Shown: positions 33,069 to 59,479 of the stretch, in pieces | Layout of the letters: every line of letters begins with the position of its first letter | Position numbering within the stretch: the stretch's first letter is position 1 | NCBI GenBank assembly: GCA_050250855.1 | Contig: JBFWNW010000002.1 | Coordinates: forward strand, 210,719-274,718 | Source: Candidatus Babeliales bacterium | GTDB taxonomy: Bacteria > Babelota > Babeliae > Babelales > JACPOV01 | Reading direction: 5' to 3' | Length of the DNA: 64,000 nt | Position numbers and translations under genes: made by a program | The notes under the pieces: model-generated | Database searches by the model: none | What the model was told of the DNA's origin: nothing | The model's input: the letters and a program-made list of their open reading frames with translations, nothing else

Positions 33069-33758
33069 ATGAAGATATATACAAAAATAATTTTTCTTTC
33101 TTTTCTTTTTTTTACCTCTCTTCAAGCGAATTTTTTTGCTGATTCTATTCTCTATGCGCAGAGAATTTTAACAAAACCATCTTCACGCAAAATTTTTAAA
33201 TCTTTATTTGTCCCGTACAAAGAGCCTGATGCAAAAAAAGTTTTATGTGGTCTTATTGATAATGAAAAAAAATCTATCTCTTTTGCGCAATATGTTTTAA
33301 GTGATAAAGAAATTACTGAGGCTTTATCTCAAGCTCATGCGCGAGGCGTAAAGATACAGGGAATCGTTGATCATTCGGCATTGCATCATGGTAATGAAAA
33401 AGTGACTGATTTGGTGCAGCAGGGTATTGATATTCTTGTTTATAAAAAGCCGTATTCAATTATGCATAATAAATATTATGTTTTTGAAGAAAATTTTTTT
33501 GGAAAACCAGTCGTTTTTATGGGTTCTGCTAATGCTAGTTTTTCTGGTTTTAGAAAAAATAAAGAAAGCATCATGGTATTTAACAACAAAGCATGTTGCC
33601 AAACGTATAAAAAAGAGTTTAGAGCCTTGCAAAAAGAAGTACAAGCACAAAAAATGTATAGCACTCAGAAACAAAGAGAACAGCAAACAGCATTTTATAT
33701 GCTTTTAAAAACTTTTAGGGAATTCAAGCGGCTTATATTTTTAGGAAATTTGTTATAA
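33069..33758 (+). CDS. Single-domain phospholipase D / Nuc-like protein with signal peptide
   Basis: MHNKYYVFE (HxK), GSAN, N.E. Confidence 0.8.
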   Translation: MKIYTKIIFLSFLFFTSLQANFFADSILYAQRILTKPSSRKIFKSLFVPYKEPDAKKVLCGLIDNEKKSISFAQYVLSDKEITEALSQAHARGVKIQGIVDHSALHHGNEKVTDLVQQGIDILVYKKPYSIMHNKYYVFEENFFGKPVVFMGSANASFSGFRKNKESIMVFNNKACCQTYKKEFRALQKEVQAQKMYSTQKQREQQTAFYMLLKTFREFKRLIFLGNLL

Positions 33759-41409: not shown

Positions 41410-42744
41410 TTACCACCCAAACACTGTTTTAGTGAATGCATTTGAAAAGATTCCTGCAGGATCGAGCCTTTTGCGTGCTTGTAAGAATAAATCAAAGTTT
41501 TTGCCATAGAGCCTTGAAGCATCTTGTTTAGTTATATAATTAATTTTCCCCCAATGAGGACGTCCATCAAAGGTGAGCATGAGTTTGTAAAAATCTTTAT
41601 AAAACTCACTTTCTTGCGTTTGGGGCATGGATACATTTAAAAAAACGACATCCTGTCCGGCAGAAGGACTTAAAAGTGCATGAGTATCAGCTAGAACGAA
41701 ACGGCAAATAATGCCATTAATGGCAATTCCTTTTTTATTGTAGTGCGCTATTAAATTTTTTAAAGCTTCAAGGGCTTCTGGGAGTTTTGAAACCGGTACA
41801 GCAACTTCTTCTTCAAGATAATAGGGACTTGGTTCTCCTGCAAGCGCTTTGTAAGAATAAGCGACACTGCTAGTAGGGATAGATAGTGGTGCTATTTTTT
41901 TTGTATCGGGTAAAAATTGATTGATTACATGTACAACAAGCCAATTGTATACAGAAATTATTAATCGTTGTAAGTGAAAGCTTAATGACGATTCAGAAGT
42001 AGCCTCATCAGTTATATCCCATACATCAACCGCTACAGAATCTTGATGTACATTATACATGAAGGTAAAAAAGTCATGGTTGTCATATAATTTTTTATAA
42101 TTTTTTTTAATAAAATCGAATGTTGTGTGCCATTGTTCATGTTTAAGTTTATACAATGGAACGCATGAAAGAGTAACAGAATAGATAATGCCAAGCGAAC
42201 CAATATTGACAAGGGCAGCATTAAAAAAATGAGCATTTTCAGTAGATGAAAGAGTGTATAAAGTGCCATCTGCTGCAACAAGTTCCATATTAACAACAAA
42301 ATTTGCCAGTGTACCAGTTTTGCCAGAGCCATGAGTTCCTGTTGCTAATGCTCCAGCTATTGTTTGCTTTGTAATAGAGGGTATGTTTGGTAATGTTAAA
42401 GTATGTTCTGCTAATGCATGAATTAATTTTTTTAAGGTGATACCTGCCTGTACTTTAATTATTTTATTTTTTACATCAAGAAAGAGTATTTTGTTTAACT
42501 CTTTTGTTTCGAGCAAATATCCTTCAGAGCAGAGGATAGGTCCCCAAGAATGTCCTGAGCCAACGGCACGAATAGTTTGTTTTGTTTGCAAAGCTTGTTT
42601 TATATAGAATTGAATTTCCTCTAGGCAAGAAACTGAAATTACATGCTCAGGATAACAAACATCTTTTTTTGACCAATTTTTCCAGCATAAGAGCGATGAA
42701 TAAAGCATGGTACTATATAAAAAAAGTATAGTTATTTTATTCAC
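41410..42744 (-). CDS. FAD-linked aldonolactone oxidase (ALO/GULO family) with signal peptide
   Basis: WKNWS, RAVGSGHSW, GALATGTHGS, GRPHWGK, LDPAGIF.N. Confidence 0.88.
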   Translation of the reverse strand: MNKITILFLYSTMLYSSLLCWKNWSKKDVCYPEHVISVSCLEEIQFYIKQALQTKQTIRAVGSGHSWGPILCSEGYLLETKELNKILFLDVKNKIIKVQAGITLKKLIHALAEHTLTLPNIPSITKQTIAGALATGTHGSGKTGTLANFVVNMELVAADGTLYTLSSTENAHFFNAALVNIGSLGIIYSVTLSCVPLYKLKHEQWHTTFDFIKKNYKKLYDNHDFFTFMYNVHQDSVAVDVWDITDEATSESSLSFHLQRLIISVYNWLVVHVINQFLPDTKKIAPLSIPTSSVAYSYKALAGEPSPYYLEEEVAVPVSKLPEALEALKNLIAHYNKKGIAINGIICRFVLADTHALLSPSAGQDVVFLNVSMPQTQESEFYKDFYKLMLTFDGRPHWGKINYITKQDASRLYGKNFDLFLQARKRLDPAGIFSNAFTKTVFGW

Positions 42745-48081: not shown

Positions 48082-49245
48082 ATGAAGATAAAATTTTTAT
48101 TATTTATTGGTTTAAGCTTTCAATTTCTTTATTGCAAAAAAGAAGAGATTAAAGCAGGAATAACGTATGAACACGTGCAGCAAGAAAAACCTGATCGCCT
48201 TTCAATGCATATAGTTACGCTTGATCTTAAAAAAGTAGATATTTCATTAGAGCGAGCTTTGGGTGGCAAGATGAATCGCGAAGAGCCTTCGTCGATTGCA
48301 TCGCGAACAGGCGCTGTTGTTGCTTGTAATGGTGCAAATTATAGACGAGGTGGTCGTTATAATGGCAATCAATTAAATCTTTGTTTAATGTATGGAAAAG
48401 TTTTTAATGATCCTCAATTTGCGCGGGGTGTTATTGCGTGGAATAAAGCTGGTAGCGTGATAATAGAGCAGTTAAAGCTTAATTGGCATTGTAAAATTGG
48501 ATCTTTAGAACTTCCTGTTGATAGAATTAATCAGCCAAAAGCGCTGCATGAAAAAATTCTTTATAATAGTACCTTTAATACGCATACATTAACTGATAAA
48601 AATAGTACCGATATCGTTATAAAAGATGGTAAGGTTATTGCTCTTAAAAAAGGAGGTAATGCCAAAATTCCTTCACATGGCTATGTATACAGTTGTGATA
48701 GCGAGGATACTCTTCTTGCAAAAATAACGGTTGGAGCACCAGTATCTGTTGATTTTACTTATAACTCTGCTGATACTGCAGATGAAATGTGGCGTAGTAT
48801 GGATTTTATATTAGGTGGTGCTGGCCTTATTTTAAAACATGGTGAGGTTGTTACTAATTTTGATCAAGAGTTTACGAATGGAAAACAAATTTTGCATTCA
48901 CATGATGAGGCTGCAGCAGATTTTCACAATGATCAAGAACGTAATTGGCTTGTTAATAAGCGTCATCCTCGAACTGCATTAGGAATACAAGAAAATGGTA
49001 CTATAGTGTTGGTGGTTGTGGATGGTAGAAAACCTGAACATAGCGTGGGAATGACGTTGCCCGAACTTGGTGCTTACATGAAATCCTTGGGATGCAAAGA
49101 TGCATTAAACCTTGGAGGTGGGGGCTGCTCAGCTTTATATATTGTTGATAAAATTGTTAATGAAGTTTCTGGTAGCGAAATTCAAGGTTCATTTTCAGCC
49201 CAAGAGCGGCCAGTTTCTGAGGCTTTTATTGTTATGCCAAAATAG
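48082..49245 (+). CDS. Phosphodiester glycosidase (NAGPA) family exported protein
   Basis: RHPRTALG, VVVDGR, G.TL.EL, ALNLGGGGCS, ERPVS. Confidence 0.85.
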   Translation: MKIKFLLFIGLSFQFLYCKKEEIKAGITYEHVQQEKPDRLSMHIVTLDLKKVDISLERALGGKMNREEPSSIASRTGAVVACNGANYRRGGRYNGNQLNLCLMYGKVFNDPQFARGVIAWNKAGSVIIEQLKLNWHCKIGSLELPVDRINQPKALHEKILYNSTFNTHTLTDKNSTDIVIKDGKVIALKKGGNAKIPSHGYVYSCDSEDTLLAKITVGAPVSVDFTYNSADTADEMWRSMDFILGGAGLILKHGEVVTNFDQEFTNGKQILHSHDEAAADFHNDQERNWLVNKRHPRTALGIQENGTIVLVVVDGRKPEHSVGMTLPELGAYMKSLGCKDALNLGGGGCSALYIVDKIVNEVSGSEIQGSFSAQERPVSEAFIVMPK

Positions 49246-53278: not shown

Positions 53279-54058
53279 ATGAAACCTCGTAAAAACGCCA
53301 TTATTATTACCGGTATTGATGATGCCACCAAATGTCCCTGTATAGGCAGTATTTTTGTTGCCGGGGTGGTGGCAGATAAAACCACTATTGCTCGGTGGAA
53401 AAAACTAGGCGTCAAAGATAGTAAGCTTGTTGCCCCAAAAAAGCGTTTTAAGCTTGAAAAAATTATCAAAGAAACCGCGCTTGCCTATTCTATTTGCCAG
53501 ATAACGCCGGCCATGATTGATGATAAAAGCCTTAATCTTAATGATTGGGAAATGGTTACTGTTTTTAACATTCTCAAAGAGCTTTATCAAAAGCAATCAA
53601 TGCTTGGTGATGTGCATGTTGATAACTGGGAAACATCAACAAAAGGGTTTAACGAGCGCTTTGCCAGGATATTGAGTGATGAGGTTTCCACGCAACTTCA
53701 TGAAAGAAATATAGCATTTGATAAAGAGCAACTGCGTGCTACCTACTTTTTGCCCGAACACCGCGCCGATGAGCTGTATACCATTGTTGGCGCTGCTTCT
53801 ATATTAGCAAAAACTTCATCTGATATTCAATATCAAGAATACAAGAAAATCTATGGTGATTTTGGCAGCGGGAGCCCTGCAGACCCTAAAACACGGTTTT
53901 TTGTCTGGCAGCACCGCCAAAATCCCTTGCCCATTATACGCAAGAGTTGGAATACATTCAAAACATTAGTGAAGTTAACATCAATTACGCAAGATCCTCT
54001 TTACAAAATAAAGAAGAAAAAAGCTAAAGATCAAATAACAATCTCCAATCCATCATAA
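53279..54058 (+). CDS. rnhB: Ribonuclease HII, divergent archaeal/eukaryotic-like type
   Basis: GIDDATKCP, GVKDSK, AASILAK, YGDFGSGSPADPKT, IRKSW. Confidence 0.75.
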   Translation: MKPRKNAIIITGIDDATKCPCIGSIFVAGVVADKTTIARWKKLGVKDSKLVAPKKRFKLEKIIKETALAYSICQITPAMIDDKSLNLNDWEMVTVFNILKELYQKQSMLGDVHVDNWETSTKGFNERFARILSDEVSTQLHERNIAFDKEQLRATYFLPEHRADELYTIVGAASILAKTSSDIQYQEYKKIYGDFGSGSPADPKTRFFVWQHRQNPLPIIRKSWNTFKTLVKLTSITQDPLYKIKKKKAKDQITISNPS

Positions 54059-54723
54059 CCGACAATAATTTCAATATCATATTTTTTTGCCAATTTTTTA
54101 AACTCTTTATGCGCTTGTTTGTTATCTTTATAAAACCACGCACCAAAATGCATAAAAGCGATAACATGTGTATACGGTTTAAAAAGCTTTATCAAATTTG
54201 GCACGCCGGTGTGCCCATAAATTTGTCCGGTTTCTTTTTTTCTGCGCACCATGCCACCGGTACGCATAAAACTAGCTTCAGTGATAACTAGATCAAGATT
54301 CTTAAGAAGCTTGTGATATTTTTTTTCAATCCAGATCATATCGCCCGTATAGAGTATTTTTTTGCCATTATGTTTAATAAGATAAGCATTTGATTGTACC
54401 TTTGCACTATGAATGGTAGGAATAGGAATAATGGTATAGTTTCCTATTTTGAAAGCTTTTTTAGTGACCTGTATGGCAACATCATCATATTCTTCCGGTG
54501 CATAGATAGGTATTTTTGTTACAGGCTTTTCATGATGACGTACAAAATAAGCATGATCAGGATGCAAATGAGTAAGCAAGAGAGCTTTTGGTTTATAAGA
54601 TAAAAAGCTTTGTTGGCCACAATCAAGCAAGAGCGTAGTATCTATAAGTACGCCCGATTTTTTTGAATGATACGGAGCAGATTCTTCAATCTCACCACGC
54701 GTACCTAATAGTTTAATCTTCAT
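54031..54723 (-). CDS. MBL-fold metallo-hydrolase
   Basis: LLGT, LDCG, THLHPDH, HS, YTGD, H, YDG. Confidence 0.88.
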   Translation of the reverse strand: MKIKLLGTRGEIEESAPYHSKKSGVLIDTTLLLDCGQQSFLSYKPKALLLTHLHPDHAYFVRHHEKPVTKIPIYAPEEYDDVAIQVTKKAFKIGNYTIIPIPTIHSAKVQSNAYLIKHNGKKILYTGDMIWIEKKYHKLLKNLDLVITEASFMRTGGMVRRKKETGQIYGHTGVPNLIKLFKPYTHVIAFMHFGAWFYKDNKQAHKEFKKLAKKYDIEIIVGYDGLEIVI

Positions 54724-54773
54724 AGTTTTAAGCTTAGAAGATTTTTAGCGTTATTTTCTAGAGTTAATAAATT

Positions 54774-55601
54774 TCATTTTATGAGATTATTTAAATAATC
54801 AAGGACTGTACTCATAATGGTCATAGTTATTACAACACCACAAAGACGAGGTGCTGTTCCTCTATAAAAATTAAAAAAAGAAGGCTTATTATTTTTTCCA
54901 TAATAGACTGATTGCGCTACTTTTTTAATAGAATTATTGTTCATAGTTCCTTGCATATTGGTTTTAACAGTATCCAGAGGTTGTGTTGCAAGAGCTGAAA
55001 ACATTCCTGCAGCCATTCCAGGAGCAATGGTTTGAATAGTAGCATTATCAATTTTTTCTGAAATTCTTTTTTTTAATACTGGATGCACATAAAAAAGGGC
55101 AGCAGAAGAAGTAATATCTCGTGCTATAATAAGCTGTATGCCGCGCAGTAATCCTTGTATTCCATAATTTTTTATGATTGATGCTAAGGCAGCAAAACAG
55201 GTTCCACCATTGTTTTGTTGTTGAGTAATTAAAAGCTCACGAGGGCCTGAGATAGTACTTGATGCAAAGCCTGCTCCAATAATAGGAATAAGTTTTTGTA
55301 TTTCAAGTGGTAACGAGGCATCTTGCATTTTATTGTTTAAAAAACTGAAAGTCGTATTTTGTACTGCAGATCTAGGAACATAACCAGAGATATTTATTGG
55401 AAGACCTCGAAACCAATGTAGAGGGTTTTTGCTGAAAGGCATATTTTGTTGCGATTTATTTTTCCAATAAAAAAATGGTTGGACTGCAGTACTAGCTAGC
55501 GAGCCAGCTGCAGCTCCGATAGCAGCATTTTTTAGCATTTCATGTTCAGTTGCCTGTATGCAGTACCATAAAAAAACAATACAAGAGGATAATTTCCACA
55601 T
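54774..55601 (-). CDS. Mitochondrial carrier (SLC25) family protein with N-terminal signal-like peptide
   Basis: Three repeats: QPFFYWKNKSQ/WFRG, GPRELLITQQQ/GLLRG, QPLDTVKTNMQ/FYRG. Confidence 0.85.
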   Translation of the reverse strand: MWKLSSCIVFLWYCIQATEHEMLKNAAIGAAAGSLASTAVQPFFYWKNKSQQNMPFSKNPLHWFRGLPINISGYVPRSAVQNTTFSFLNNKMQDASLPLEIQKLIPIIGAGFASSTISGPRELLITQQQNNGGTCFAALASIIKNYGIQGLLRGIQLIIARDITSSAALFYVHPVLKKRISEKIDNATIQTIAPGMAAGMFSALATQPLDTVKTNMQGTMNNNSIKKVAQSVYYGKNNKPSFFNFYRGTAPRLCGVVITMTIMSTVLDYLNNLIK

Positions 55602-55691
55602 TACAAATCCTTTTTACATTGCTAAAAGAGTAAAATTGTTTTATTGTGTAACCACCATTAAAATATACTATTTTTACCAAGAAGGGGTACT

Positions 55692-57356
55692 GTGAAATTA
55701 ACGAATCTTCTCATAGTATTTGTTATCATTGTATCATCAATATTTTCAACACTTGTCATGAGTTACATTGCTATGGCTTCCGGCATAGGGCCATGGATTG
55801 AAACAACGCTGGTACTTTTTTCTATGCTTTTTTTTAATATAGCAGCACGGTTTATTGCTCTTCCTTATGTTGAATCCATAGGTCTGACAACTTCTGCTGG
55901 TGGCATTGGTGGCATTATGGCAACAAGCTTTGCTTTTTCTTTGCCAACACTTTATTTTATTGCACCCGAAGTATTTAATGCATGGATGGCAAATCCATTA
56001 CTTTTCTTTTTTATTTTTACCGTATTTGCTTTGGCGGCAGGAAGTTTTGGTTTTTTAATGGCAGAAGCATGCGAAGAACAGTTATTAGTGCGTGAGAAAA
56101 TGAAATTCCCTATCGGCGAACTGGTTTATAATACTATTGTTGATAAAGGGCAAATAAATAGGGCACGCGAACTGGTAGCAGGTTTTTTTGGTACACAGTT
56201 TTTTTTACAGATTATTACGCGTTTCAGATTGATTTCTGAAACAATAGTTTTAAATAATACGCATCAATTTTCTATGTTTATAGTGCCCACATTTATTATT
56301 CCTTTGACGCAATTTCCTATGTATATTGCCGTTGGCTTTGTAACCGGTTATGTTATTGCAATGCCGTTGCTTGTTGGTTTTTTACTCAAAATGCTCTGTT
56401 TAAATCCTCTTTTTTATATATACACTAATCCGCATGCATATTTTCCTTCGCCAATATTTTCTTGGCTAACACCTAATAGTTTAACAGAGAGTGAATTTTC
56501 ATTAGCATTTTGTAGCGGCATGGTTGTTTATGGTGCTGCTGCAGGATTTTGGATGTTGCTTCCTTCGCTAAAAAATTTTGTTGTTTCGCTCAAGGAAAAA
56601 GAATATTCCTTGCGTATGAATGTACGAGAATACGCGCAAATCCCTTGGCTTGCATCAGTGCTGATTTTGTTGCTTAACAGCATTATATTATGGCATTTTG
56701 AGTTTTCATTACTCATGCAGCTGTACCTTTTTATATTTTCAGGAATTTGTATCTATCAAATGCTTATTATTGCCGGCAAAATGGGGATTATTCCGTTAGG
56801 ACGTTTTGCCACCTTTGTTATGATTCCTGGTATGCTTCTTTTTAATCTCAATGCGGTACAAATTACGTTAATTGCAGCATTCGTTGAAATTGCTGGTGGC
56901 GTTGCGGGCGATATTTTGTTTGGGCGTCGGGTTGCGCAACTTGCTTCTATTGAACGAAAAAAAATGGTATGGGCTCAATGGATTGGTTTTATAGTAAGTG
57001 CCTTAGTAATCGGTGTTATTTTTTGGGTATTTATTAATAATCTAGGGCTTGGTAAAGCTGCAGGCTTGCCGGTCATAAAAGCTTACAATCGTGCATTGCT
57101 TATTAATTTTAAAAGTTTTGATTTTTATGTGCTGGTGATGGGAATCTTTTTTGGCTATTTTGTAAAGTTTACCAAAATTAATCCAGCCTTATTATTAGGT
57201 GGTATTTTAATGCCTCCGAATATTTCTCTTATGCTTATTGTTGGAGGATTGGTATCCCTTATGGTATATAATAAAGAGCAGTATTATCCATTAATGTCTG
57301 GTATTTCTGCGGGTAATTCTGTATGGCTTTTATTGCATGCATTATTACGCGCATAA
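55692..57356 (+). CDS. OPT/YSL family transporter
   Basis: About 16 TM segments; YIAM..G, KMKFP.G motif, GR.A. Confidence 0.7.
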   Translation: MKLTNLLIVFVIIVSSIFSTLVMSYIAMASGIGPWIETTLVLFSMLFFNIAARFIALPYVESIGLTTSAGGIGGIMATSFAFSLPTLYFIAPEVFNAWMANPLLFFFIFTVFALAAGSFGFLMAEACEEQLLVREKMKFPIGELVYNTIVDKGQINRARELVAGFFGTQFFLQIITRFRLISETIVLNNTHQFSMFIVPTFIIPLTQFPMYIAVGFVTGYVIAMPLLVGFLLKMLCLNPLFYIYTNPHAYFPSPIFSWLTPNSLTESEFSLAFCSGMVVYGAAAGFWMLLPSLKNFVVSLKEKEYSLRMNVREYAQIPWLASVLILLLNSIILWHFEFSLLMQLYLFIFSGICIYQMLIIAGKMGIIPLGRFATFVMIPGMLLFNLNAVQITLIAAFVEIAGGVAGDILFGRRVAQLASIERKKMVWAQWIGFIVSALVIGVIFWVFINNLGLGKAAGLPVIKAYNRALLINFKSFDFYVLVMGIFFGYFVKFTKINPALLLGGILMPPNISLMLIVGGLVSLMVYNKEQYYPLMSGISAGNSVWLLLHALLRA

Positions 57357-57373
57357 ATATTGTAGGGGAATAT

Positions 57374-57658
57374 ATGAAAAAGAGCATACTCGTGTGCGCA
57401 TGTGCTATTTTTACGACTTTTATGCAAGCAGACCATATTGTTTCTTATAATATTGTGGATGGCGCCACAGTATATATTAAGTATGGTGATGAAAAAGATA
57501 TTTATGTTACCTATAATTTAAAGACATACTCAATGCTCATTCACCATTGCTCTTCCAACACATGGACCAAGGAAGATTCTTCTTTGGCAGAATTAACCTT
57601 TAAGGAGTTTAAAGAATCTAGCCAGTTTTTAAAGGTTCTAGGGGGAAAAAATGAATAA
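57374..57658 (+). CDS. Small secreted protein, family member 1 of 3
   Basis: Signal; YNLKTYS...AELTFKEF. Confidence 0.65.
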   Translation: MKKSILVCACAIFTTFMQADHIVSYNIVDGATVYIKYGDEKDIYVTYNLKTYSMLIHHCSSNTWTKEDSSLAELTFKEFKESSQFLKVLGGKNE

Positions 57659-58004
57659 ATTTTTTTTAGTAGTATTGTTTATACAGGGTATGTTGATGGC
57701 ACAAGAAGCACAAGAATGTGTGCATAAGGGAACTACAAAGTTTAAAGGAAGTTTAGAGTATACAGAGCGCGGGAATGAAATTTTTTATGTTGATCATCAA
57801 ACAGGATGTGATACGTGTGTATTTTTTAATAGGCAAACACAAGAATATACAGCACATGTGCGTTATTTTAAGTCGCATGCTATTAACCATGAAGCTTCAA
57901 AAGCTCAAACTATGTTTAATGAGCTGAAAAAGCGTTATGAAGATGCTCAAGAGGAAGAGTTAGCTGTTTCATTTGAGTATATAATGACTGAAACTAATGA
58001 ATAA
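57651..58004 (+). CDS. Small secreted protein, family member 2 of 3
   Basis: Signal; FNRQTQEYTA...AQTMFNELKKRYE. Confidence 0.7.
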   Translation: MNKFFLVVLFIQGMLMAQEAQECVHKGTTKFKGSLEYTERGNEIFYVDHQTGCDTCVFFNRQTQEYTAHVRYFKSHAINHEASKAQTMFNELKKRYEDAQEEELAVSFEYIMTETNE

Positions 58005-58016
58005 TCGGGATTTTTT

Positions 58017-58361
58017 ATGAACTATAAAGCACTAGTGCTCGTTAATTTTTTTATTTTTAATATTTGTGCAATGGAAGAGGAAGAGAGAAGCAGTTATCCT
58101 ACCAGTGATCCAGATACTGTTATTATCAGAAAAGAGACTAAAGAAAACATTACGTTTATTAAAAAATATGAAAATGAAAAATATCCTTTTGCCTCAGCTA
58201 GCACTATAACTTTTTATGACAAAAATACAAAAACTTACTCTGCTGTTTTAGCGAGAATGAGGGGTGGTTTTTGTCCATTAACTGATGAGGCTGATACCTT
58301 TTATGAGTTGCAAGAACTCTATGAAGCGTGCAAAAAAAAGGCTGAGACTACAAAGAATTAA
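58017..58361 (+). CDS. Small secreted protein, family member 3 of 3
   Basis: Signal + AMEE; YDKNTKTYSA...ADTFYELQELYE. Confidence 0.7.
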   Translation: MNYKALVLVNFFIFNICAMEEEERSSYPTSDPDTVIIRKETKENITFIKKYENEKYPFASASTITFYDKNTKTYSAVLARMRGGFCPLTDEADTFYELQELYEACKKKAETTKN

Positions 58362-58468: not shown

Positions 58469-59479
58469 ATGAAAAAGCTATTATTTATACTTATTTCTCT
58501 TTTTTCTTATACACTCGTTGGATCAGAACAGGGAGATTTTCCATCTCCAAAGAAACTCAAGGGCGAGGAAAGCCCAGAAGTTTCTGAGGTTCAAGTAGTT
58601 CAAGAAAATCCGCTTGTTCTTGCTATCAAAAAAGAAATTTTTGCTTTAAATCCAGAGCAATTGGCGAAGGTTTTAGAAGAGCAAGGAATTGAACAAATCG
58701 ATAAAAAGACAAAAGATGATTTGTTAGAATTAGCTTCGTCTAACAATAAAAAATTCATTAACTTTGCACTACTTGCATCAAAATTTGGTCAACCATTTAC
58801 CAGCAAAGATCTTCAGGAAAAACTCAATTTTGGTATACAGATAAAAAGTACAAAAAGAATAGAAAATTACTTAAAGGCTTTTATTCTACTAGAAAGAGGT
58901 TTTAAATTTCCTCAGGCATTTTTTAACCCTGCACCGTATATTCCAAATGATCCTCGTCCTTCATTAGATGACATTCTGAAAGCTCTTATTAAAAATGAAC
59001 AAGAAAAAATTCAAGTTTGTTGCTTTCATTTTACTTTATATAACGTTGCAGATTGTTTGGTGCAACAAAAAAATAATGAGGGCGTGTGCGTTGAGGTTTT
59101 AACAAATCAAGATCAGGGTGAAAATCCGGTTTTGCAACCACTTGAACATTTAATCAGTAATGGTATTGTAGTAAAAGCACCGGTTAGAAATAACTGTGAA
59201 ACTAATCACCATAAATTTGTTATATTTACTGCCAATGTAGGCGGTAAAAGCTTAGTCTGGCATGGTTCTTATAATATGACGGGGCATTCTAATAAACGCT
59301 CATGGGAAGAGGTTACTATTTTGAATGACTCTTATATAATCAATCAGTTTATCGACAGATTTAATGAGATCTCAAATCTTGGTGGAACTATTACTTTAGA
59401 TATTCTTAATACTATTCAAACTAATCCAAGCCCTTGCAGCTATGATATTAATAACGTTCCTGCTGAATTAAGAAAATAG
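58469..59479 (+). CDS. Secreted protein with C-terminal PLD/Nuc-like domain
   Basis: GGAGG RBS; signal; HHKFVIF, GSYNMT, S.E. Confidence 0.8.
   Translation: MKKLLFILISLFSYTLVGSEQGDFPSPKKLKGEESPEVSEVQVVQENPLVLAIKKEIFALNPEQLAKVLEEQGIEQIDKKTKDDLLELASSNNKKFINFALLASKFGQPFTSKDLQEKLNFGIQIKSTKRIENYLKAFILLERGFKFPQAFFNPAPYIPNDPRPSLDDILKALIKNEQEKIQVCCFHFTLYNVADCLVQQKNNEGVCVEVLTNQDQGENPVLQPLEHLISNGIVVKAPVRNNCETNHHKFVIFTANVGGKSLVWHGSYNMTGHSNKRSWEEVTILNDSYIINQFIDRFNEISNLGGTITLDILNTIQTNPSPCSYDINNVPAELRK

Follow-up and report, generated by a model that had tools for sequence, protein, structure and literature searches.

SLC25 carriers, the carriers of the mitochondrial type, are treated as a hallmark of eukaryotes. 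We describe here a gene for such a carrier in a 64,000-nucleotide stretch of DNA from a Candidatus Babeliales bacterium of the phylum Babelota (contig JBFWNW010000002.1, positions 210,719 to 274,718); the whole stretch is called the window below, and positions are counted from its first letter. The gene lies on the reverse strand and encodes a protein in which a hydrophobic N-terminal presequence precedes three carrier repeats. The observations on which our argument builds directly are family membership, the predicted fold, a presequence conserved among relatives in the phylum, the charge bias of the loops, and the lack of type III and type IV secretion cores. They lead us to hypothesize, with slightly more confidence than doubt, that the protein is a resident importer in the bacterium's own inner membrane and not an effector like LncP of Legionella. 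A wider proposal, which we regard as evenly balanced between right and wrong, is that a phylum of intracellular bacteria domesticated a eukaryotic SLC25 carrier as an inner-membrane nutrient importer by adding a Sec signal peptide.

The carrier gene and its product

The open reading frame (ORF) comprises 275 codons, and its coordinates, checked against the ORF list and the translation, agree exactly with those of a preliminary description made from the sequence. That description had recognised an SLC25-fold protein of three carrier repeats, and both the family and the fold bear this out. The Pfam model Mito_carr (PF00153) matches the whole protein clearly (87.3 bits, E 5.9e-25, cut-off 22.3), and each third taken alone also scores above the cut-off (Table 1). 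In an AlphaFold2 model based on an alignment of 35 sequences (mean predicted local distance difference test, pLDDT, 92.5; predicted template modelling score, pTM, 0.87), the protein has the six-helix carrier fold, with long helices at residues 21-51, 67-92, 99-131, 155-183, 187-219 and 249-274 and additional short matrix helices; residues 2-17 form a separate helix of low confidence. Foldseek counted 14 matches in the PDB at E <= 1e-3, and the matches listed are mitochondrial carriers only, with UCP1 and the ADP/ATP carrier (AAC) at the top and a Tetrahymena oxoglutarate/malate-type carrier among them; template modelling (TM) scores lie at 0.70-0.74 for structures in the cytoplasmic-open state, against 0.59 for 6GCI, which is matrix-open. 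The ESM Atlas model of the same sequence reaches a TM score of 0.83 to Mito_carr clusters. A profile search of the PDB matched UCP2 at E 1.7e-33 and AAC1 at E 7.7e-20, and a search with the single sequence matched UCP2 alone (E 1e-3). By sequence family and by modelled fold, the product is thus confirmed as a genuine carrier of the SLC25 or mitochondrial type. The position of a Shine-Dalgarno-like AAGGA supports a start at the upstream ATG, and hence translation of the presequence, over a start at the internal Met22.

Table 1. Features of the carrier gene and of genes discussed with it (window positions; H1 to H6 are the six long helices).
Feature	Position	Strand	Basis or remark
Whole gene, 275-residue SLC25-fold protein with N-terminal presequence	54774..55601	-	ORF, Pfam, AlphaFold2, Foldseek
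Shine-Dalgarno-like AAGGA, 6 nt upstream of the ATG at 55601	55608..55612	-	read from the sequence
Sec-type signal-peptide-like presequence, residues 1-17	55551..55601	-	feature scan, Kyte-Doolittle mean 2.18, separate helix in the model
Carrier repeat 1, residues 18-100 (H1, very short matrix loop, H2)	55302..55550	-	Pfam, 26.0 bits
Motif PFFYWK, residues 42-47, acid missing, K47 kept	55461-55478	-	repeat 1; alignment to bovine AAC1
Carrier repeat 2, residues 98-187 (H3, matrix helix, H4)	55041..55310	-	Pfam, 27.1 bits
Motif PRELLI, residues 120-125, E122 kept, base missing	55227-55244	-	repeat 2; alignment to AAC1
R161-D162 in repeat 2, contact point II			alignment to AAC1 (at G182-I183); same arginine aligns in UCP2
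Carrier repeat 3, residues 185-275 (H5, matrix helix, H6)	54777..55049	-	Pfam, 48.7 bits
Motif PLDTVK, residues 208-213, canonical	54963-54980	-	repeat 3
MBL-fold hydrolase (Lactamase_B_2), 50 nt downstream of the carrier	54031-54723	-	
PLD-like protein (PLDc_2)	33069-33758	+	
PLD-like protein (PLDc_2), clear signal-like N-terminus	58469-59479	+	
D-arabinono-1,4-lactone oxidase (ALO + FAD_binding_4)	41410-42744	-	
NAGPA phosphodiester-glycosidase-like protein	48082-49245	+	
Three tandem small ORFs (111, 117 and 114 residues)	57323-58361	+	each with a signal-like hydrophobic N-terminus

Presequence and transport residues

A feature scan finds at the N-terminus what is expected of a cleavable Sec signal, in agreement with the signal-like character given to it in the preliminary description: a positive n-region (MWK, +1), a hydrophobic h-region of 12 residues (LSSCIVFLWYCI) within the usual span of about 7-15, and small residues at -3 and -1 in the c-region IQA, followed by the acidic stretch TEHE. 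The core of the presequence is the most hydrophobic ten-residue window of the protein's N-terminus, with a mean Kyte-Doolittle hydropathy (KD) of 2.18. A charged n-region and an uncharged hydrophobic run ahead of H1 are present at all 31 distinct loci of the phylum, this one included (a tally that omits the duplicates L006, L007 and L004 of L013, L021 and L037, and a partial second ORF in L011). The run has a median of 15 residues and a range of 9-27, the two longest being inflated by the lack of an assigned start codon at those loci; small residues stand at -3 and -1 in 29 of the 31, the ten-residue KD mean is at least 2.0 in 29 (1.93 and 1.76 in the other two), and an acidic stretch again precedes H1. 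Since these leader sequences are mutually unrelated, the feature itself is what has been conserved. It occurs at none of three loci from other bacteria (a Parachlamydiales record, and two loci from one bin), and it is missing from 54 of the 56 rows of a clade that contains eukaryotic sequences. As judged from these sequences, a Sec-type presequence is what distinguishes the bacterial copies from the eukaryote-containing clade.

The genome encodes both SecA and signal peptidase I. The carrier's own helices are weakly hydrophobic (mean KD 0.61) as against the strongly hydrophobic leader, which makes the presequence the obvious targeting element, and it is plausible that helices of this kind require a dedicated leader. 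A census of charges in the predicted loops counts 12 K/R and no D/E on the side facing the cytoplasm, and 5 K/R and 6 D/E in the outward segments, a bias that would fit a topology with the N-terminus outside.

The residues that govern transport were located by aligning the family profile to bovine AAC1 and UCP2, so that F44 corresponds to E29 of AAC1, K47 to K32, E122 to D134, I125 to R137, D210 to D231, and K213 to R234. The matrix bridges of AAC are E29-R137, D134-R234 and D231-K32. On this scheme, hydrophobic residues appear to have replaced both members of a single bridge (the acid in H1 and the base in H3), and the other two bridges to have been kept. The three motifs read exactly as they had been written in the preliminary description, with the kink proline in all three and the full Px[DE]xx[KR] in the third. 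In the eukaryote-containing clade the tallied residues, which cover 52 of 56 rows for the H1 acid site and 55 of 56 for the H3 base site, include no acid at the former and neither K nor R at the latter; the H1 lysine and the H5 aspartate and lysine are present in 56 of 56. Copies from the phylum follow the same pattern more loosely, and in some lineages nearly everything has been lost. The degeneracy of the motifs is, on these alignments, conserved across the whole family, the eukaryote-containing clade included. The earlier idea of an altered salt-bridge network therefore stands as to departure from the canon, and needs amendment in that the departure is a family-wide trait in which one coherent bridge is removed and the network is not wrecked.

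On the opposite face, the carrier lacks the [FY][DE]xx[KR] network of canonical strict-exchange SLC25 carriers: the aligned positions S86/N89, P174/K177 and L267/L270 hold no acid-base pair out of three. At the H4 site where the network acid would stand, proline is found in 52 of 56 sequences of the eukaryote-containing clade, 21 of 31 from the phylum, and 21 of 23 in a third clade. K47, E122, D210, K213, R161 and R252 remain conserved throughout the family, R252 in 55 of 56, 31 of 31 and 23 of 23 sequences of the same three groups, and the glutamine braces at 51, 129 and 217 are kept in the window's carrier. Network strength varies among recognised SLC25 members, and Ruprecht and Kunji hold that a weak network may break spontaneously and so permit uniport (PMC7611774). 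By that published theory uniport is a fair inference for this protein, chiefly from the missing cytoplasmic network. The suggestion that it might be a uniporter is thereby supported in spirit; the gate concerned would be the cytoplasmic one and not that of the matrix, and the property would be a trait of the subfamily rather than a bacterial novelty. Counting +8 from each [KR]G places the contact points at G73, R161-D162 and G255, and the consensus residues of the family there are S/N, R-[DE] and R; the class of substrate is set by contact point II (PMC7611774, PMC12410006).

Distribution, kin and genomic setting

A HMMER search of 1.84 billion representative proteins returned 3811 matches at E <= 1e-3, 417 at E <= 1e-10 and 12 at E <= 1e-30, the best of them 40% identical. 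A word-index protein search recovered the query alone, or six proteins when run with the family profile, and a search for related loci from ten aligned rows gave five, two of which duplicate genomes of the phylum. With a profile of the 35 top matches (E <= 1e-5), homologues were found in 39 of 261 genomes of the phylum, this one included, in 30 of 189 high-quality genomes and in 26 of 145 genera, usually as one copy, and they occur in several single-contig genomes. The premise that bacterial carriers are rare oddities, from which the preliminary description had started, is thus an understatement for this phylum. The plain Pfam Mito_carr model matched 3 of 40 relatives, far fewer than the family profile, and its low sensitivity may be the reason that the family has gone largely unnoticed. 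Within the bacterium's own family one genome of nine has a homologue (G002), and the same-genus genome G001 (95% complete) has none.

Several of these loci call for separate remark. The copy in G002, the nearest genome still having the gene, is broken into two short ORFs (locus L003, 1067-1324 and 1501-1752) with an in-frame TGA inside the matches, and looks like a pseudogene. In genome G243 (locus L011) a partial carrier-like ORF, with the third repeat alone recognisable, lies about 400 nt downstream of a full carrier and may be a decayed tandem duplicate. Loci L006 and L007 are identical in DNA to L013 and L021, respectively; their record titles name Pseudomonadota and Saccharimonadales, the genome collection places them in the window's phylum and order, and the deposited labels are probably wrong.

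Trees were built on the carrier core with the presequence columns removed. In a FastTree phylogeny of 176 rows, one clade of 56 includes every sequence whose source gives a eukaryotic origin: the choanoflagellate Didymoeca costata, the foraminifer Ammonia sp., the green alga Ostreobium quekettii, and further MMETSP/EukProt transcripts (a look-up established the eukaryotic source of six rows, one by way of MMETSP members of its cluster; for the remaining rows of the 56 the origin is inferred from the clade). The eukaryotic relatives expected in the preliminary description were thereby found, in a related clade. Some of its members are fusions: the Ostreobium gene model (P0112, 989 codons over 5 kb) joins a carrier to a protein kinase. 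Other fusions among the family's matches (P0025 and P0087) are a Clp_N-like domain joined to a carrier in metagenomic sequences and a 979-residue double carrier of Intoshia annotated as Aralar1. An IQ-TREE analysis of 64 rows (LG+C20 with posterior mean site frequencies, PMSF; quick search) gave the core of the eukaryote-containing clade 99% support in the Shimodaira-Hasegawa-like approximate likelihood ratio test (SH-aLRT), and 98% to a second presequence-less clade with the bacterial loci L008 and L009, which groups with the former at 85%. The window's protein falls with L013 and L021, from two other families of the phylum, at 100%, and the backbone among the phylum's sequences is unsettled.

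A tree constrained to place all 31 phylum sequences on one side of a branch was 5.3 log-likelihood units better than the free search, and its probability in the approximately unbiased (AU) test was 0.673; the test therefore does not reject the hypothesis that the phylum's copies arose once. Being unrooted, with no named canonical carriers as an outgroup, the tree gives no direction of transfer for the subfamily. The reverse course, in which an orphan SLC25 subfamily spread across protists was seeded from these bacteria, is compatible with it. The SLC25 fold as a whole is eukaryotic in origin. The best explanation of these sequence data would be one old exchange with eukaryotes followed by patchy retention within the phylum.

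The window is part of a bacterial chromosome, with genes for TyrRS, HisRS, FtsA, FtsZ, SecA, TamB, an ATPase of the type II secretion/type IV pilus (T2SS/T4P) kind, MgtE, RNase HII and two tRNAs, and with an even GC content of about 0.35 that shows no dip at the carrier gene. Eukaryotic contamination was considered and rejected: the neighbouring genes are bacterial, GC is even throughout, and genomes of the phylum that consist of a single contig also carry the family. The genome (1.22 Mb in 11 contigs, 95% complete) has a single carrier gene and three loci for TLC-type ATP/ADP translocases; small size together with such translocases is, as far as gene content tells, the profile of an obligate intracellular energy parasite.

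Around the carrier, a gene for an OPT-family transporter is divergently transcribed from it, and an MBL-fold hydrolase gene follows on the same strand; no terminator-like site was found in the scanned interval 54600-55800, so the two same-strand genes may be co-transcribed. Promoter matches in that interval were no commoner than in shuffles. None of the MBL-fold, RNase HII, GNAT, OPT and PLD neighbours recurs beside carriers at other loci (flanks of 1.5-4 kb), and none of the genes next to the carrier recurs beside the OPT orthologues of five related genomes; with no gene neighbourhood common to the loci, no operon logic can be derived. Elsewhere in the window, the three tandem small ORFs may encode small exported proteins that are paralogues of one another, and the two PLD-like proteins are candidates for secreted enzymes of the phospholipase or nuclease type. 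The lactone oxidase and the NAGPA-like protein are eukaryote-flavoured enzymes within a reduced genome.

Cellular location, alternatives and known systems

In the course of events that we favour, the Sec-type signal peptide would bring the carrier to SecYEG/YidC, signal peptidase I would probably cut after IQA17, and the mature N-terminus would be left in the periplasm. The six helices would next be threaded into the membrane with the matrix side of mitochondrial carriers turned toward the bacterial cytoplasm, the orientation being that of the mitochondrion with the periplasm in place of the intermembrane space. Alternating between outward-open and inward-open states, the carrier could supply a cell of reduced metabolism and energy-parasitic habit with a metabolite from its host. 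The retention of two of the three matrix bridges, together with the absence of a cytoplasmic network, would favour spontaneous return of the empty carrier, and such return would in turn favour net uptake, by uniport or proton symport, over strict exchange. Cleavage, location, orientation, direction of transport and substrate are what we infer; of the effector and the metabolite-theft transporter that had been proposed side by side, the theft transporter fits best, and an LncP-like effector fares poorly given the Sec-type presequence at 31 of 31 loci and the lack of secretion cores.

Several considerations weigh against residence in the inner membrane. The signal-peptide call rests on a feature scan and on recurrence in homologues, and Sec signals are carried also by many host-directed secreted proteins of such bacteria, several neighbours in the window included, so that a signal peptide by itself is no proof of retention in the inner membrane. 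The helices of the bacterial copies are slightly less hydrophobic than those of the eukaryote-containing clade (mean KD 0.66 versus 0.79, Mann-Whitney p 3e-5), which gives no sign of adaptation to insertion in a bacterial membrane, and helices so weakly hydrophobic could in principle cross Sec completely; an argument that the bacterial copies are the more hydrophobic ones was dropped, as the measured difference had the opposite sign. The positive-inside pattern is common to any mitochondrial carrier and thus does not discriminate. The gene is dispensable, being absent in G001 and broken in G002. As to what would be imported, the glycines at contact points I and III make the binding site depart from the family consensus. 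R-[DE] at contact point II is the amino-acid carrier signature that Robinson and Kunji are said to have described in 2006, and it hints, with low confidence, at a substrate of the amino-acid class, a weak lead.

It is unlikely, in our estimate, that the carrier is instead directed to the host, leaving the bacterium to insert in the host's mitochondrial inner membrane or the vacuole membrane and there to drain or redirect metabolites. Membrane effectors that avoid capture by the inner membrane have weakly hydrophobic helices, and those of this carrier are of that kind; its closest non-bacterial kin are eukaryotic, so that compatibility with host import machinery is possible; many proteins of the window with Sec signals are likely exported; and the genome encodes two secretins besides the T2SS/T4P-type ATPase. 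Type II systems export folded soluble proteins and not polytopic membrane proteins, which counts against type II export of the carrier. A precedent exists in LncP, a carrier translocated by the Dot/Icm system and assembled in host mitochondria (PMC3252375). Against such a fate, a protein that combines a cleavable Sec signal with six helices downstream bears the mark of insertion into the inner membrane, and the presequence is kept in every one of the phylum's copies but missing from the eukaryote-containing clade, which uses host import. Delivery of the LncP kind requires a type IV system, and in the bacterium's own genome (95% complete) no match was found to the VirB4, VirD4, TrwB or FHIPEP models. 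VirB4 was found in none of the 261 genomes of the phylum, where the model PF03135 may miss a divergent VirB4 of the Dot/Icm type and type VI systems lay outside the search; this limit, too, tells against our preferred reading. FHIPEP, of the type III core, scored above the cut-off in one of the 261, a genome without a carrier (G051). The two genomes of other bacteria with presequence-less carriers, G261 and G262, both encode FHIPEP, which may be a type III or a flagellar export gate.

Quite unlikely, in turn, is a protein that resides in the membrane by an uncleaved N-terminal anchor, in effect a seventh helix, or that serves a role other than transport, such as lipid scrambling or protein insertion in the manner of MTCH1/2. 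Long h-regions occur in the phylum (as many as 19 residues where the start is clear), several lineages (L035-L038; L005, L033 and L034) lack nearly all network residues, which suggests relaxed constraint on transport, the cytoplasmic network is absent family-wide, and SLC25 is known to include atypical members that serve in other roles (PMC7611774). For this protein, however, an h-region of 12 residues followed by IQA and TEHE is what a cleaved signal typically looks like, and 12 residues are too few to span a membrane; the kink prolines, two matrix bridges, glutamine braces, and R161 and R252 in the cavity are features of working carriers. That the gene is an evolutionary leftover, acquired horizontally and drifting to loss with no present function, we hold to be very improbable. 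Its distribution is indeed patchy (38 of 260 other genomes, and within the bacterium's own family one of nine, broken), a genome of the same genus lacks it, and its neighbourhood is not conserved; yet the frame is intact over 275 codons with a ribosome-binding site, the fold is predicted at high confidence, key residues are conserved against relatives that are 25-40% identical, composition matches the genome, and the family is found in at least 26 of 145 genera with a presequence in every copy examined.

A resident importer in the inner membrane, if that is what the protein is, would be the first carrier of a "mitochondria-only" family native to a bacterial membrane, in the mitochondrial orientation and probably a net importer. 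It would parallel the energy parasitism of ATP/ADP translocases, and would be a case in which a swap of targeting signals retargets a membrane protein across domains of life; such a carrier would be naturally suited to bacterial expression and hence useful for structural and transport work, and would offer a handle on the orphan protist subfamily. For uncultured parasites, it names a candidate route of metabolite theft. In the literature searched (supplements not covered) we found none on signal peptides of bacterial carriers or on the distribution of carriers in this phylum, and on mitochondrial carriers of TM6, Babela or Dependentiae only Pagnier et al. 2015; a 2025 specialist review contains neither the word Legionella nor the word prokaryote (PMC12410006). 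New here are the phylum-wide count, the tally of presequences, the eukaryote-containing sister clade, the reading of the motifs as loss of one bridge, the lack of type III and type IV systems across the phylum, and the AU test.

Among eukaryotic proteins, the ADP/ATP carrier and UCP1/UCP2 (1OKC, 4C9Q, 8G8W, 2LCK) share the fold at 13-17% identity, and the window's carrier differs from them in lacking the nucleotide-type G-[IVLM] at contact point II, one matrix bridge, and the whole cytoplasmic network. In SLC25A29, a carrier of basic amino acids, the ligand-binding residues are Asn73, Arg160-Glu161 and Arg257 (PMC8598871); the contact points of SLC25A29 and the ornithine carriers resemble the family consensus (S/N; R-[DE]; R), from which the window's carrier departs by its glycines at I and III, and the likeness to SLC25 amino-acid carriers is one of contact points and not of established close sequence kinship. 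Nearest is the orphan protist subfamily (P0060 of Didymoeca costata, P0038 of Ammonia sp. and P0112 of Ostreobium quekettii), about 25-32% identical to the window's carrier and with the same motifs: P-x-hydrophobic-x-x-K-N in H1, P-x-E-x-x-hydrophobic in H3, P-x-D-x-x-K in H5, R-[DE] at contact point II, a proline replacing the network acid in H4, and an invariant R252. It differs in having no hydrophobic presequence (54 of 56), in some fusions to kinase or Clp_N domains, and in forming a clade of its own (99 SH-aLRT); we know of no function or location assigned to it.

Among bacteria, a "handful" of carriers is mentioned for Chlamydiales, Rickettsiales and Legionellales in one source (PMC5621508), and a few besides LncP for Legionella and Neorickettsia in another (PMC3252375). 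Babela massiliensis (TM6/Dependentiae), likewise a small-genome bacterium of the amoeba-parasite type with SLC25-type genes and several ATP/ADP translocases, was reported to have mitochondrial carrier family transporters among its own nutrient transporters, "with unknown specificity" (PMC4378268, Pagnier et al. 2015); the paper gives them one sentence, without analysis of signal peptide, motifs, distribution or eukaryotic kin. LncP of Legionella pneumophila and Llo1924 of L. longbeachae are likewise SLC25-fold proteins of intracellular bacteria, presumed to have been acquired from eukaryotes (PMC3252375, Dolezal et al. 2012). Compared by description and not by sequence, LncP acts in host mitochondria after injection through the Dot/Icm type IV system, whereas the window's carrier has a Sec-type presequence in a genome without type III or type IV cores, and so lacks both marks of the LncP type, a type IV system in the genome and the absence of a Sec signal. 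The one bacterial carrier that has been studied is an injected effector, and a carrier kept in the bacterium's own membrane would, if the reading we favour is right, be a second and different use of the fold.

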